Virus record (IMG/VR): IMGVR_UViG_3300033076_000596
Location: 1-49,440 of that record
Direction: 5' to 3' (one strand)
Source: a virus
Lineage: Duplodnaviria; Caudoviricetes
Length of the DNA stretch: 49,440 bases
A program made the translations under genes and the position numbers. The stretch's first letter is position 1, and each line of letters starts with the position of its first letter. The notes under the pieces are model-generated. The model saw nothing but the letters and a program-made list of their open reading frames with translations. It searched no databases and was not told the DNA's origin. Shown piece by piece: positions 25,622 to 49,440 of the stretch.

Positions 25622-26119
25622 TTAAAACTTCGTGGCGTCTTTGACTGACTTCACGTCTGTCGGATCGGTAATAACGGCCATGATGCGGTCATCAGGGATG
25701 ATTGCAACGGCAACACCGCGATACGAAACGGCAGTGGCTTCATAGCGCGGGATCATCACCCAATCGCCAACCTTGCACCAAGGGCCGCTATCCTTGAACT
25801 TCTCACCCTGATAGGCTTCAGGTCCAAGCGCGCAGACCAGCGCGGAGCAGGACTGATACTTCTCTTCAGCCTGCATACTGATTGGACGGTAGAGGGTGAC
25901 CTGCTTGCCATCTTCGGTTGTGATGACGCTCAGCTCATCCGGCTCGACGTAAATCTTCAGTGCGACAAGGTAACCAGCCGGGCGCATATCAAACGGCCTG
26001 CCAGTCATGGCGATGAATTGCTCGTCAATAAGCTGACGCGCCAACTCCTCCTCATGCGCCTCGACATGGCTTAGGCCCTGCTTAGGCGGGATGTTAATCC
26101 CTAATAGATTCTCGCTCAC
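25622..26119 (-). CDS. GroES-like co-chaperonin (phage-encoded)
   Basis: MRPAGYLVAL...VCALGPEAY...WCKVGDWVMIPRY...IIPDDRIMAVI matches the GroES fold pattern. Confidence 0.75.
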   Translation of the reverse strand: MSENLLGINIPPKQGLSHVEAHEEELARQLIDEQFIAMTGRPFDMRPAGYLVALKIYVEPDELSVITTEDGKQVTLYRPISMQAEEKYQSCSALVCALGPEAYQGEKFKDSGPWCKVGDWVMIPRYEATAVSYRGVAVAIIPDDRIMAVITDPTDVKSVKDATKF

Positions 26120-43932: not shown

Positions 43933-44155
43933 TGAGCAATGGTTCCAGCGCGAACCGGATGATGAATTTGTTATTAGCGCATTGTGCGACTACCAGCCCA
44001 AGACCGCAGAACAACTGACGGAATGGCTAATGATGTGCGCAAATGGTGTGCTGGATAAGGATGGCCTGCGCCTGCCTTATAAACTGCCGCCTTATGTCGC
44101 ATGGCAAATGGCTCGGATGATGCAGATTGCAAGACTGGATGTGCCTCGTGACTGA
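43922..44155 (+). CDS. Hypothetical protein
   Basis: Probable start MANDEQW. Confidence 0.6.
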   Translation: MANDEQWFQREPDDEFVISALCDYQPKTAEQLTEWLMMCANGVLDKDGLRLPYKLPPYVAWQMARMMQIARLDVPRD

Positions 44156-44378
44156 CGATGGCATCGCGCTGCGGGCAGCCGCGCACCCAATCGCGCCGTG
44201 GTATAAGCGGCTGTGGTTTCGATATCAGCTTATGCTGTGCCGGGTGTTTGGCCATGACTACAGCATCTCGGTGGTCGATGATGCCGATAACCGCTGGCAA
44301 GTCATCTACACTCGCTGCTCGCGCTGCTCAAAGCACAAGCCTTTATCGCATATCACAATAAAGGTGCGGCATGGTTAA
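44148..44378 (+). CDS. Hypothetical protein with possible Zn motif
   Basis: LCRVFGHDY...CSRC; start uncertain. Confidence 0.55.
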   Translation: MTDDGIALRAAAHPIAPWYKRLWFRYQLMLCRVFGHDYSISVVDDADNRWQVIYTRCSRCSKHKPLSHITIKVRHG

Positions 44379-44510
44379 GCCCCCTTGGTATGGCGGGAAC
44401 AAGATCCCCGACAGCTATCTCAAGAAATTCCTACCTTCGCAGGGTGATGAGGCGGACCCTGAGATGTCGTATGAACTACGCCTCTTCCTTCATGGTATGG
44501 GAGATGAGAG

Positions 44511-44696
44511 ATGCAAGAACACATTACAATCGCACTGATCGTGATCCTGACGCTGGGCGGTATCGTCCTGCTGTATGTGAATGCCGGCCTGCGCAAGCAG
44601 CTCGAGGCATTGAACGACGAGTACCACACGCTGGTTGATCGTGATCCGAAGACCGGCCGGTTTGTTAAAAGCATGCGTACTTTAAAGCGGGACTAA
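44511..44696 (+). CDS. Small membrane-anchored protein
   Basis: N-terminal TM, short coiled coil, RDPKTGRFVK tail. Confidence 0.65.
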   Translation: MQEHITIALIVILTLGGIVLLYVNAGLRKQLEALNDEYHTLVDRDPKTGRFVKSMRTLKRD

Positions 44697-46175
44697 ATGA
44701 TTCTCAGAGATTATCAGGAGATGTCCGTCGAAGCTGTGCGCGATAGCTATCGTGCGGGTAAGAGGCGGACTCTCCTTGTACTACCGACAGGCGGCGGCAA
44801 GACGGTATGCTTTAGTTACATCGCCGCCGGAGTTGCCAAGAACAACAAGCGCGTCCTGATCATCGCTCACCGGCGTGAGCTGCTGAAGCAGATCAGTAAC
44901 GCACTGACTGCTGTGGGTGTGCCGCACGCCATGATGATGGGCGGCAGCACGGGCATCCCGCAGTCGAACGTGGTCGTGGCTTCAGTGTTCACGCTGGCCA
45001 ATCGGCTCAAGCATTTCCCCCCACCTGACATGATCATTGGGGACGAGGCGCATCATTTCACGCCTGACTCTTCATGGGGCAAGGTGGTCAACGCATTCCC
45101 CAACGCCCGTGTGCTGGGCGTGACGGCCACGCCTGAGCGGCTGGACGGCAAGGGGCTGGGCGCTCTGTTCGATGACATGGTTGTCGGCCCTACTGTGGCG
45201 GAGCTGACGGAGCAGGAGTACCTTTCTCCCGCTGACGTGTACGCACCGAGCAGGCCTGACATGCGCGGCGTGCATAGCCGCATGGGTGACTTCGTAAAGG
45301 CGGAGCTGGAGCAGGTGATGGACAGGCCGTCGATCACAGGCAGCGCCGTCGCGCACTACACCAAGCTGGCTGCGGGCAAGCGGGCCATCGCCTTCTGCGT
45401 CAGCGTCAAGCACGCCCAGATGGTGGCTGAAGACTTCCGCGCGGCTGGCTATTCATCCTATCACATCGATGGCGGCATGAAGGAAAGCGTGCGCGACACG
45501 GTGCTGAAGGACTTCGAGGCTGGCAAGATACAGGTTCTGACGAGCTGCGATCTGGTGAGCGAGGGCTTCGATCTGCCGGCAGTGGAGGTGGCTATCCTGC
45601 TGCGGCCCACGCAGTCGCTGTCGCTGTACCTTCAGCAGTGCGGGCGCGCCATCCGGCCGGCGCCGGGCAAGACCAAGACGATCATCCTTGATCATGCTGG
45701 CAACACCGCACGGCATGGCTTCATTGACGAGCCAAGGGACTGGACGCTGGATCAAGATATCATCAAGCAGCGCCGCGCCGCAGCCAAGGAGAAGCCGCCG
45801 GAGGTACGCACCTGCCCCGAGTGCTTCGCCATGCACGTCACGCTGCCTGTCTGTCCCAAGTGCGGCCACGTTTATGAGATCAAGGGTCGCAAGATTCTTC
45901 AGGTTGACGGCACGCTGGTGCAGGTTTCTAGTGCGACTGAAGCTCAGTCAGCAGCGCAGGAGACGGATTGGAAGCGCCGCTTCGACGTACTGTCGATGGT
46001 CGGACGCAAGCGGGGATACAAGTCACCACAGAAGTGGGCGTACAATGTGATCTGTGGACAGGAGGCAACGCGTCTAGCCAAGCTGCGCAACGCGAAAGAA
46101 ACTACCAACGGGCTGACGATGGAAGAGAGGCAACGGATATGGCGAATGACAATTGGGAGGACGGGGAGGGGGTAG
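44697..46175 (+). CDS. Superfamily 2 (DEAH) helicase with C-terminal Zn ribbon, RadD/YejH-like
   Basis: LRDYQ, PTGGGKT, DEAHH, TATP, EGFD, Q..GR..R, CPEC...CPKC. Confidence 0.92.
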   Translation: MILRDYQEMSVEAVRDSYRAGKRRTLLVLPTGGGKTVCFSYIAAGVAKNNKRVLIIAHRRELLKQISNALTAVGVPHAMMMGGSTGIPQSNVVVASVFTLANRLKHFPPPDMIIGDEAHHFTPDSSWGKVVNAFPNARVLGVTATPERLDGKGLGALFDDMVVGPTVAELTEQEYLSPADVYAPSRPDMRGVHSRMGDFVKAELEQVMDRPSITGSAVAHYTKLAAGKRAIAFCVSVKHAQMVAEDFRAAGYSSYHIDGGMKESVRDTVLKDFEAGKIQVLTSCDLVSEGFDLPAVEVAILLRPTQSLSLYLQQCGRAIRPAPGKTKTIILDHAGNTARHGFIDEPRDWTLDQDIIKQRRAAAKEKPPEVRTCPECFAMHVTLPVCPKCGHVYEIKGRKILQVDGTLVQVSSATEAQSAAQETDWKRRFDVLSMVGRKRGYKSPQKWAYNVICGQEATRLAKLRNAKETTNGLTMEERQRIWRMTIGRTGRG

Positions 46176-46357
46176 TCGTTCCTCTATCTCTGATAAAAGA
46201 TCTGACCGAGAACATGATCGACACGATTGATAAGTGGCATGAGAAGCGTGGCATCGAGTGTCTAAACATGGGTCAGTGCGTTGTCGCCATGATCGCCGCT
46301 GTCGATGCGGTGGCCGAGACGATGAACGGATATCCTGATGGGGCCACGCTGCAATGA
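46139..46357 (+). CDS. Hypothetical protein
   Basis: Probable start MANDNWED. Confidence 0.55.
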   Translation: MANDNWEDGEGVVVPLSLIKDLTENMIDTIDKWHEKRGIECLNMGQCVVAMIAAVDAVAETMNGYPDGATLQ

Positions 46358-46707
46358 GCAGTGAAGCAGTCATCCAGCAGAACATCAGGCTGGCTCTGGG
46401 TATGCGGGATGACATCTTCATGTTCCGCATCAACGTCGGTGTCTTCCGTCCCCTGCATGGGGATCAGCGCCGTGCGATCCGTTCCGCACCCGATGGAACG
46501 CCCGACTTGATCGGTGTCATGCAGCCCGGCCGTGCCTTTGCCATCGAGGTAAAAGCTGCTAAAGGTCAGCAACGTGAGGCGCAGAAGAACTGGCAGAAAG
46601 CGTGGGAAAAGCGCGGCGGAATCTACATTCTGGCCCGCTCTGTTGACGATGTTTACAAAGGGCTTGACATATCTGTTGACGGTGACGCATATAGTCCGCA
46701 GCAATAA
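46354..46707 (+). CDS. VRR-NUC-like PD-(D/E)xK nuclease
   Basis: E..IQ..I, GTPDLIG, AIEVK, Q..W. Confidence 0.8.
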   Translation: MSSEAVIQQNIRLALGMRDDIFMFRINVGVFRPLHGDQRRAIRSAPDGTPDLIGVMQPGRAFAIEVKAAKGQQREAQKNWQKAWEKRGGIYILARSVDDVYKGLDISVDGDAYSPQQ

Positions 46708-46731
46708 TGCTGCTAATGGTAAACCGGAGCA

Positions 46732-47205
46732 ATGGATATGAAAAAGGAACTGACGTTTTCCCTAGAGTATTGGAAAGACAGGGCTGAGTTTTTCGAGAAG
46801 CACATCGAAGAGCTGCGTGAAGTTAGGGCTGAGATGAAAGAGTACGTCAACGAGCGGTTGCAGAATGAGAACGACGAACTCAAGGCCATTCTTATCAAGC
46901 TGACTGAAGCTATCACAGCGCAGTTGAAGAACCGGACTGACGAGATCATCCCGAACGATGGTGAAGCGTCGTCATATATCAAAGCATATCGGGCGCGCCG
47001 TATTCTCATCGACGATCTGGAAATGACGGTGCGCTCTGCCAACTGCCTCAGGAACGAAGGCATAAAGACGCTGGGCCAGCTATGCCGATGGTCAGAAGCT
47101 GACCTGCTGCGCATCCCCAACTTAGGACGCCGCTCGCTGAACGAGATCAAAGAGATCCTGTGCAGCCGTGGCCTTACACTGAAACCAGATAACCGGAGCA
47201 ACTAA
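46732..47205 (+). CDS. Coiled-coil protein with RNA polymerase alpha C-terminal domain homolog
   Basis: [19 protein letters not shown]...[19 protein letters not shown] closely matches the alpha-CTD pattern. Confidence 0.85.
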
Positions 47206-47206
47206 C

Positions 47207-48157
47207 ATGGCTATTATTCCTGTGCGTGACGAAGCGCATTGGCACGAACTGCGTGCCGCAAGTATCGGCGGCTCTGATGTCGCCGCCCTCCTTGGCATCT
47301 CGCCATACAAATCCAAGTGGCAGTTGTGGATGGAGAAGTCAGGCAAGCTGCAGGCAGAAGACCTGTCGTCCAACACCGCAGTGCAGGCCGGCACGTTCCT
47401 CGAGAGTGGCATCGCCAACTGGGCATCGCACCGCTGGAACATGGATCTCAGCAAGGTCACCGACTATTACACGGCTGACGATATCAAGGGCATGGGCGCA
47501 TCGCTCGACTACATCACACAGACTGGCAAGCCCGCTGAGATCAAGTGGTCTGCACGCGGTCACGGCTGGCGCTATGATGATGACAAGATCACTGAAGCCC
47601 CTGAGTATTATCTCATTCAGGTGCAGCACCAGATCGCCTGCCTCAATGCGAATGGCATCGACGCTGACTCTGGTTGGCTGATCGCTCTGATCGACAACGA
47701 GCCGCGCCGTATGCTGGTGCCGCGCCATGACGGTGTCATCGCCGCTATCAAGGAAGGCATCGCAGAGTTCTGGGCCAGCATCGATGCAGGCAAGGAACCA
47801 AACCCAGACTTCTCGCTTGACGGCGACGCGATTACCAAGATGTTTGGTACGCTGCCGACTGCTGAGGTAGAGCTGGACAGTGACGCTGCGCCGTTGTTCG
47901 CCAAGTATCTGGACGCTGCTGCGACTGAGAAGCTGGCGAAGGAAACCAAGGAAGCACTCAAGGCAGAGCTGCTGTACCTTGGCGCCGAGAAGCTGAAGGG
48001 CAGCAACCAAAGCACCGACAAGGCCATCATCCGCTGCGGCGATCACAAGATCAGCATCAGCCAAGTCGCCCCCAATGAAGGGACCGAGGTGACGCAGGAG
48101 ATGGTTGGCACACGCATCAACGCCCGCAAGGGGTATCAGACTGTGAGGATCAGCTAA
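47207..48157 (+). CDS. YqaJ-like (lambda exonuclease family) recombination exonuclease
   Basis: W...R..SIGGSDVAALLG.SPY, G..LE, ASLD, EIK, Y.IQVQHQ. Confidence 0.88.
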   Translation: MAIIPVRDEAHWHELRAASIGGSDVAALLGISPYKSKWQLWMEKSGKLQAEDLSSNTAVQAGTFLESGIANWASHRWNMDLSKVTDYYTADDIKGMGASLDYITQTGKPAEIKWSARGHGWRYDDDKITEAPEYYLIQVQHQIACLNANGIDADSGWLIALIDNEPRRMLVPRHDGVIAAIKEGIAEFWASIDAGKEPNPDFSLDGDAITKMFGTLPTAEVELDSDAAPLFAKYLDAAATEKLAKETKEALKAELLYLGAEKLKGSNQSTDKAIIRCGDHKISISQVAPNEGTEVTQEMVGTRINARKGYQTVRIS

Positions 48158-48318
48158 TGAGTGACATCATGGTCCGGGTCGATAGGGAGACATATGAGCG
48201 GCTCAAGGAAGTGTGCAGCCGCCATCCCCTCAAGCCCAAGATGAAGGCCGCCCTCGAGCGCGCCATCGAGCTGATGATCGAAGACTTTGAAGTGGAGATC
48301 GAGAATGCAAAGCAATAA
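48157..48318 (+). CDS. Putative ribbon-helix-helix protein (53 aa)
   Basis: Not in the track. MSDIMVRVDRETYERLKEVC...MKAALERAIELMI; TAATG overlap. Confidence 0.6.
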   Translation: MSDIMVRVDRETYERLKEVCSRHPLKPKMKAALERAIELMIEDFEVEIENAKQ

Positions 48319-49405
48319 TGCCGTCGCGAATGTCAGGCCGATTGATCGGTTCAAGCAGGAGCTGACGCTGCGCAAGGACATGATGGTGTCCCTGCTGCCG
48401 AAGAACATCAACTTCGATAAGTTCCAAGCCATCGTCATCGCTGCAGTTGGCAGCAACCCTGAGCTGCTCGAGTGTGATCGTGGCTCGCTGCTCAAGTCCT
48501 GCATCCAAGCAGCCGAGCTTGGCCTGTCTCTGAACCCCACGCTGGGCGAAGGCGACATCCTCAAGGTTTGGAACAACCGCACCAAGCGTAACGACGCCCA
48601 GTTCCGGCCGCGCTACATGGGCCTGATGAAGCTGGCCCGTCAGTCGGGTGAGGTCGTGAAGATCGAAGCTGAGATCGTGCGTGAGAACGACGAGTTCCTC
48701 ATCCAAAAGGGTGACGAGCCGCGCCTCGAGCATCGCATCAAGCTGGGCAACCGTGGCGATATGGTTGGCGCATACTGCATCTGGACTCTGAAGGATGGCA
48801 CCAAGCAGTTCGAGGTGATGGACCGGGATCAGATCCTTGCCATCCGCGACCGCTCGTCAGCCAAGACTAAGGATGGGCGCATCGTCGGGCCTTGGGCTAC
48901 GGATCAGGAAGAGATGTGGCGTAAGACTGTGGTGCGTCGCGCATCCAAGTACATGCCGCGCGCGACTGAGGCCTTCGCCAATGCCGTCGCTCTGGATAAC
49001 CTGCTCGAGGTTGGCCACGAGGTGGACATCAAGGACGGTGAGGTGATCGATGTAACGGCTGATGTCGTGGAACATGACGCCGAAACAGGTGAGGTCTATG
49101 AAGAAGTGATCGCGCCTCCGGCCACCAACCAGATGGATCGCATCGCGCAGAAGGTAGCAAAGGCCGAGCCTGCACCCGAGCCTGAGCCAGAGCCAGCCAT
49201 CGAGATCTCCGTACTCGAGGTAGGGCATGACGCCGATGGCGACGAAGACTGGGATGGATGGGTGGCCAAGGCCATCAACCAGATCAAGGACATGTCGCCT
49301 AACAACAAATCTACATGGAGAAAGCTACATCTCTCCATGCTTGATGAAGCCGAACTGATGAACGCCCGCGATCTGGGCAAGCTCATCGCAATCCTGAAAG
49401 GTTAA
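48305..49405 (+). CDS. recT: RecT-family single-strand annealing protein
   Basis: NPELLECD..SL..S.IQAAELGL.., Y.GL.KLARQSG, GPW.TD.EEMWRKTVVRR..KY.P; paired with YqaJ. Confidence 0.88.
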   Translation: MQSNNAVANVRPIDRFKQELTLRKDMMVSLLPKNINFDKFQAIVIAAVGSNPELLECDRGSLLKSCIQAAELGLSLNPTLGEGDILKVWNNRTKRNDAQFRPRYMGLMKLARQSGEVVKIEAEIVRENDEFLIQKGDEPRLEHRIKLGNRGDMVGAYCIWTLKDGTKQFEVMDRDQILAIRDRSSAKTKDGRIVGPWATDQEEMWRKTVVRRASKYMPRATEAFANAVALDNLLEVGHEVDIKDGEVIDVTADVVEHDAETGEVYEEVIAPPATNQMDRIAQKVAKAEPAPEPEPEPAIEISVLEVGHDADGDEDWDGWVAKAINQIKDMSPNNKSTWRKLHLSMLDEAELMNARDLGKLIAILKG

Positions 49406-49410
49406 AGCAT

Positions 49411-49440
49411 ATGGCTAAGAAGTATGATCTCGTCGTCAAG
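49411..49440 (+). CDS. Partial CDS (MAKKYDLVVK...) running off the window
   Basis: ATG 5 nt after the RecT stop; GAAAGG SD. Confidence 0.5.
   Translation, partial: MAKKYDLVVK

Follow-up and report, generated by a model that had tools for sequence, protein, structure and literature searches.

The window analysed here, the whole 49,440-nt stretch of IMG/VR virus record IMGVR_UViG_3300033076_000596 (90% complete), encodes terminase, portal, capsid/head and endolysin (lysis) genes and holds one match to PF03118, the family for the C-terminal domain (alpha-CTD) in the alpha subunit of RNA polymerase. The match lies in an open reading frame at 46732-47205 (+) of 157 aa, in which both motifs singled out by the initial annotation, TVRSANCL and PNLGRRSL, were found; its start at 46732 was revised. 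Since a GGAG at 46726-46729 lies 2 nt upstream of the ATG at 46732 and 8 nt upstream of the ATG at 46738, and homologues start at the position of the second Met, the protein probably begins at 46738 and comprises 155 aa (Table 1).

The RNA_pol_A_CTD profile matched residues 90-143 with 77.6 bits (E 6.1e-22; Pfam gathering cut-off, 23.8 bits), and all 50 PDB sequence matches of the protein were alpha subunits or alpha-CTDs. A generic HhH protein, which the initial annotation had named as the outcome that would speak against it, was rejected, as HHH_5 reached just 16.5 bits, below its cut-off of 27 bits. The alpha N-terminal assembly domain, described earlier as replaced, is indeed missing: the alpha-NTD families PF01000 and PF01193 gave no match in the Pfam search, and the rpoA model TIGR02027 scored 71.7 bits against a cut-off of 227.8. 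These results confirmed that the open reading frame ends in a true alpha-CTD without the alpha assembly domain. An rpoA fragment or host contamination was also rejected, as TIGR02027 stayed far below its cut-off and the same phage slot holds the gene in seven loci. A PHROGs v4 search with the protein returned 0 families at E up to 0.01.

At least half of the sampled words of positions 44000-49440 were contained in 14 runs, labelled freshwater (10), groundwater (1) and metagenome (1), with two carrying no label. Contigs of four RNA-labelled runs left the gene body nearly uncovered, which neither shows nor excludes expression. PADLOC gave only weak, partial matches. A GroES-like gene lies among the head genes at 25622-26119 (-) (phrog_3188, E 3e-9).

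Table 1. Features of the slot, its neighbours and the encoded protein (window coordinates)
Feature	Position	Strand	Remarks or basis
VRR-NUC nuclease gene, fixed left neighbour	46354..46707	+	profile matches, locus comparison
Promoter-like element: TTGACA within VRR-NUC gene end, 18 nt, CATATA	46664..46693	+	locus comparison
Left 11-nt direct repeat with ribosome-binding site	46722..46732	+	locus comparison
Gene for the alpha-CTD protein with putative zipper	46738..47205	+	155 aa, probable start; a start at 46732 adds two residues
N-terminal aromatic helix, residues 5-33	46750..46836	+	alignment and model
Predicted leucine zipper, residues 38-63	46849..46926	+	heptad analysis, alignment
Low-confidence linker (65-73) and helix 74-87	46930..47001	+	AlphaFold2 model
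Core of the alpha-CTD, corresponding to E. coli RpoA 255-314, without host tail G315-W321	47002..47181	+	profile, PDB matches, Foldseek, alignment
Right 11-nt direct repeat	47191..47201	+	locus comparison, run contigs
YqaJ/RecE-like exonuclease gene, fixed right neighbour	47207..48157	+	profile matches, locus comparison
Small Arc-like protein gene, weak match	48157..48318	+	phrog_3180, E 1.3e-4
RecT-like annealing protein gene	48287..49405	+	profile matches

An optional cassette ahead of yqaJ

The gene is an optional, dispensable and mobile cassette. The same VRR-NUC and yqaJ genes flank the slot in 84 distinct loci (the window, 82 viral contigs and one MAG contig; five duplicates and three loci with a distant yqaJ are not counted). 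The slot was empty in 74 of them, held the gene in 7 and had other content in 3; in all seven carriers the gene stands directly ahead of yqaJ. On the YqaJ tree, the carriers require seven changes, five of them forced by starred branches, against a shuffled mean of 6.8. The carriers are thus unclustered and need no fewer changes than shuffles, indicating repeated gain or loss. Direct repeats containing the ribosome-binding site (RBS) flank the gene in five of the seven carriers (11, 24, 14, 14 and 11 nt), and the flanks of the remaining two share just 5 and 7 nt. Contigs of runs X1, X12 and X15 join 46721 to 47191 over the window's 11-nt repeat, with intervening letters that are not known, and the repeat is present twice in locus L089 but once in L088, its sister with an empty slot.

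The slot takes various cassettes, because L115 (2793-2972) and L118 (2764-2973) carry in it, before yqaJ, an unrelated ORF of 59-69 aa with a GxxGxGKT P-loop-like motif. In a remoter relative, L090, VRR-NUC and yqaJ are separated by an ORF of 143 aa whose N-terminus is HTH-like (1844-2275), and the TTGACA element is missing. The helicase of L084 (464-3445) has 993 aa, and the window helicase matches it in three separated pieces; its first insert looks like an intein, judged by its motifs. At the other end of the block, a conserved gene that in relatives encodes about 100 aa starts behind recT (49411-49440 of the window) and is probably an SSB gene.

CTTGAC codons occurred ahead of the slot in 83 of the 84 loci, whereas 12% of the Leu-Asp pairs of adjacent genes use them, and the A and T located 20-21 nt downstream were conserved at 98% and 94% (51 unique sequences, with many loci close kin). 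This conservation suggests that the TTGACA element is a candidate promoter; a strict sigma-70 scan of the window did not report it. AAA at the proximal-UP position was found in 4 of 7 carriers, the window copy included, versus 17 of 76 non-carriers (p 0.065). An inverted repeat (46698-46713) separates the promoter-like element from the RBS and is possibly an operator for the Arc-like protein; relatives have inverted repeats of other sequences in this position. Leader hairpins of four sequences were no stabler than shuffles (z -0.8 to -1.6).

Stalk, family and descent

The AlphaFold2 model of the protein, built from the alignment of 44 sequences (mean pLDDT, 86.8; pTM, 0.50), contains a single 56-residue helix (9-64), a helix at 74-87 and then the alpha-CTD helices; owing to the pTM of 0.50, the placement of the stalk relative to the CTD is uncertain. 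The best PDB match of the model in Foldseek was 9zum_E, the Caulobacter alpha-CTD on A/T DNA (E 3e-7; TM, 0.83 by target), and the top PDB matches were all alpha-CTD or alpha. The coiled-coil stalk claimed in the initial annotation is borne out by this predicted helix together with a heptad signature at residues 38-63. The a positions (38, 45, 52 and 59) are occupied by Ile/Val, Asn, Leu and Ile, and the d positions (41, 48, 55 and 62) by Leu, Leu, Leu and Gln. Among aligned members, Asn45 (a) and Glu44 (g) are present in 44 of 44 and Lys/Arg49 (e) in 43 of 44. In the best register, 75% of a/d positions hold large hydrophobics, compared with 19% of other positions, and the helical periodicity of the stalk alone exceeded that of shuffles only modestly (p about 0.035 per segment). 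Leucine at d, asparagine at a and g-e salt bridges are typical of parallel dimeric zippers such as GCN4. Residues 38-63 carry this GCN4-like signature, and on its strength the zipper is predicted to form a parallel dimer; the likeness to GCN4 lies in that pattern, and the phage protein has no basic region. An atlas search with residues 1-88 returned generic helices only, with no usable match and no detectable homology to GCN4-type zippers. Further upstream, all 44 members share F7, Y11, W12, R15, A16 and E20 of the N-terminal aromatic helix, and the first 20 residues account for 7 of the alignment's 15 invariant columns.

The family as found comprises 48 clusters, 47 of them with an alpha-CTD. 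A full-length search gave 10 further clusters at 54-68% identity. The profile of the N-terminal 90 residues matched 45 clusters of 48-163 aa, 44 of them with PF03118 (the exception, of 88 aa, may be cut), and among 7999 longer candidates scored there were three more clusters of 164 aa, all with PF03118. Because this profile almost always matches alpha-CTD proteins, the stalk is almost never seen without an alpha-CTD. A single-protein scan of viral contigs detected no relatives, the N-terminal DNA pattern gave 0 matches in GTDB genomes, and the lone N-terminal match of the viral profile scan (L002), which has a methylase neighbour and no alpha-CTD, was dropped as chance. No close cultured phage was found, with matches of no more than 46% for the helicase and 35% for the terminase.

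The phylogeny against bacterial rpoA proposed in the initial annotation placed the family on its own, faster evolving branch, split from the sampled host CTDs (SH-aLRT 99). The 116-row tree was a quick one with 60 columns and long branches, in which the placement of Bacillus phage Goe8 beside the window copy is not trusted. A 38-row tree joined the family with alphaproteobacteria (support, 91); a grouping with gammaproteobacteria was rejected by a narrow margin (p-AU 0.047), and one with the metagenomic set was not rejected (p-AU 0.24). F295 occurs in 86% of members, 100% of alphaproteobacterial and 0% of gammaproteobacterial sequences, S263 is likewise an alphaproteobacterial feature, and 35 of the 44 members were on average nearer to the alphaproteobacterial set. 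The window copy was nearer to the metagenomic set (63%) than to the alphaproteobacterial one (53%). An Alphaproteobacteria MAG contains a closely related phage contig whose slot is empty and which may be misbinned. The host is likely proteobacterial and perhaps alphaproteobacterial, as judged from these comparisons.

The gene is under purifying selection in both halves, with pN lower than pS in all 21 gene pairs and a dN/dS of 0.12-0.55 in the 15 unsaturated pairs (L089 was read from the ATG four codons in for pN/pS). Synonymous divergence of L089 from L120, L127 and L164 was 0.33-0.40 in the CTD and 0.66-0.77 in the stalk, a difference suggesting that alleles swap halves by recombination.

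Retained and eroded alpha-CTD surfaces

We aligned the CTDs of 44 family members with 115 host sequences in E. coli RpoA numbering: 31 alphaproteobacterial and 31 gammaproteobacterial ones, mostly top-scoring loci of about 150 genomes each, and 53 metagenomic ones picked for likeness to the query, most in rpoA-length frames. The latter served as host controls, as the metagenome scan (2 of 64 parts) gave, among the matches listed, only host rpoA-like sequences. R265 and G296 were present in all 44 members, N294 and S299 in 95% and K/R298 in 81%. Thus most of the UP-element residues listed in the initial annotation proved to be family features, the exception being N268, which is retained in the window copy (with R265, N294, G296, S299 and K298R) and in only 61% of members. 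R265, N294, G296, K/R298 and S299 occurred together in 35 of 44 members and all six, including N268, in 21. By comparison, S266 and C269, neighbours of the invariant R265, were kept in just 18%. On average, 86% of members kept the host residue at the 6 DNA-face positions; for 30 further non-core positions conserved in hosts, the average was 49% (Mann-Whitney p 0.005). We picked the position sets ourselves with the help of the literature, and several kept HhH-hairpin positions may be structural. The alignment thereby indicates that the DNA-contact face is kept in the family. E286 (95%), R297, E302 and K304 were likewise kept (93-98%), and the CTD net charge was -0.3 in the family versus -0.2 to 0.0 in hosts, that is, no more basic.

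Other surfaces fared worse. In the 287 determinant, taken here to include G315, R317 and L318, the equivalents of G315 and R317 were found in 0 of 44 members and that of L318 in 1 of 44. The proposal that the protein sequesters CRP-type activators through this determinant therefore fits poorly. The whole G315-W321 tail, part of the 287 determinant in the available text of PMC1874639, is gone. D259 and E261, which form the 261 determinant and contact sigma region 4 (PMC5511352, available text), were acidic at both positions in 115 of 115 hosts and in 18 of 44 members, so these sigma-contact acids appear eroded across the family. Activation of phage promoters through sigma region 4, another of the earlier proposals, is weakened by their loss in 26 of 44 members, although the window copy itself keeps both. 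Two further proposals, blocking of DNA sites and sequestration of partners that bind the DNA face (NusA AR2, DriD-type regulators), match the conservation pattern.

Possible roles of the free alpha-CTD

The reading that we favour, at a rough probability of 40%, is that the protein serves as a dimeric competitor, free of RNA polymerase, at the A/T-rich upstream DNA sites of the host alpha-CTD. The zipper would stand in for the alpha-NTD and pair two CTDs in a parallel dimer, thereby providing avidity. Expressed first from the TTGACA element, ahead of yqaJ-recT, the protein would bind narrow A/T minor grooves via the equivalents of R265, N294, G296, K298 and S299 and would dampen UP-element-dependent host promoters. 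Any benefit to the phage would be modest or conditional, because most sister phages lack the gene. This reading is favoured because of the preferential retention of the DNA face, the joint retention of five contacts, the invariance of R265 amid eroded neighbours, the zipper pattern and the purifying selection. It is also favoured because the Caulobacter alpha-CTD contacts A/T DNA through R266, N269, N295 and K299 (PMC13004042, available text) and because phages are known to disable the alpha-CTD. T4 Alt/ModA, LUZ19 Rac and G1 gp67 modify R265, cleave the linker or block the domain from sigma (PMC2988021, PMC7552054, PMC3694059, in the text available); the proposed outcome, loss of alpha-CTD-dependent host transcription, is the same, and none of these proteins is an alpha-CTD copy. 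Against the competitor stand the equally conserved E286, R297, E302 and K304, the incomplete retention of N268 and the CTD charge. The competitor also leaves the invariant aromatic N-terminal motif unaccounted for, and the AAA tract that some carriers have at the proximal-UP position in the promoter ahead of the gene is not easily squared with phage promoters escaping the competitor.

Conservation cannot tell DNA from protein ligands, because DNA mimics such as DriD bind the same face. The main rival, tentative and less probable than the competitor, is accordingly a protein decoy, in which the dimer titrates factors that grip this face (DriD, the acidic repeats of NusA, R265-directed enzymes). 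With DriD as the target, the decoy would dampen a damage response that is set off by ssDNA and that YqaJ-RecT, co-transcribed with it, would provoke; the position of the gene directly before yqaJ in every carrier agrees with this. The available text of PMC13004042 describes DriD as an ssDNA-sensing WYL activator that mimics DNA on the Caulobacter alpha-CTD at K272, N295, R298, K299, E303 and E306. The family keeps the equivalents in 82% (K/R), 95%, 93%, 81% (K/R), 98% and 50%, respectively; E303 is solvent-facing in the DNA complex (PMC13004042, available text), but 43 of the 44 members still have its equivalent. NusA AR2 also binds the alpha-CTD; NusA repeats are limited to gamma-proteobacteria according to the accessible part of PMC7171158, and C-terminal repeats of NusA were above the TIGR01954 cut-off in all three alphaproteobacterial genomes tested. 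However, the invariant R265 is absent from the listed DriD contacts, and the DriD-alpha-CTD affinity of 30 uM (PMC13004042, available text) is weak, so titration would need high levels. The slot may also be merely a strongly expressed insertion site, with an unrelated small ORF there in two loci. An extended form, a mobile anti-response cassette whose dimeric decoy captures DriD-type WYL regulators and silences the damage/defence response to phage recombination, seems improbable; if true, it would represent RNA polymerase domain mimicry as counter-defence.

It is unlikely that the protein is an adaptor or activator of phage promoters, with its CTDs on upstream DNA and the aromatic helix touching RNA polymerase or a phage protein. 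The clustering of invariant columns in the N-terminal 20 residues goes beyond the needs of a bare dimerisation stalk, and the window copy has D259, E261 and AAA at the proximal-UP position. Nevertheless, the sigma-contact acids are gone from most members, and the 74 loci without the gene keep the same promoter element, so no phage promoter in those loci depends on it. We consider equally doubtful a non-transcriptional role, in which the protein is a dimeric HhH-type recombination accessory or the gene is an almost neutral passenger that RecE/RecT spreads between short repeats. The location within a helicase-VRR-NUC-YqaJ-RecT block, the RBS repeats of 11-24 nt and the unclustered presence on the YqaJ tree speak for it; purifying selection in both halves speaks against neutrality, and further points against such a role are a domain that is an alpha-CTD rather than a repair-type HhH and other phage lineages that have an alpha-CTD on unrelated N-terminal domains.

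The family is real, selected, mobile and undescribed; the free phage alpha-CTD itself is a recurring kind already present in annotations. In searches of openly accessible full texts, PMC7824862 and the Htm preprint among them, no study on the function of a protein of this kind came up. The domain resembles bacterial alpha-CTDs (PF03118; PDB 9ZUM from Caulobacter, 1LB2 and 3N97 from E. coli) in fold, in about 50% of residues and in DNA-contact residues, whereas the phage protein is untethered from RNA polymerase, lacks the alpha-NTD and the G315-W321 tail, and has an eroded 261 determinant. Since phages are known to modify, cleave or block the alpha-CTD, a captured, self-dimerising copy would be a further route, and if working as proposed it would be a ready tool for turning off UP-element-dependent transcription. 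The family is well suited as a test case: it is small, sister genomes with and without the gene occur naturally, the residue pattern is clear and a close structural model exists. Unrelated phages repeatedly carry free alpha-CTD copies, all of them known from automatic annotation. They are present in no fewer than ten named BFVD entries (98-240 aa; 22-40% identity), and small phage genes with a free alpha-CTD include, in UniProt, A0A2P1JY10 (Rhodococcus phage Finch), A0A5Q2WLP1 (Mycobacterium phage Mithril) and several A0A6J5 entries (uncultured Caudovirales). Goe8 QDP42789 likewise has a free alpha-CTD but an unrelated N-terminal domain. This 210-aa fusion (L001, 1959-2591) occurs twice in the Goe8 record, and its SP-10 and SBSphiC relatives match residues 1-143 only, leaving out the CTD part.
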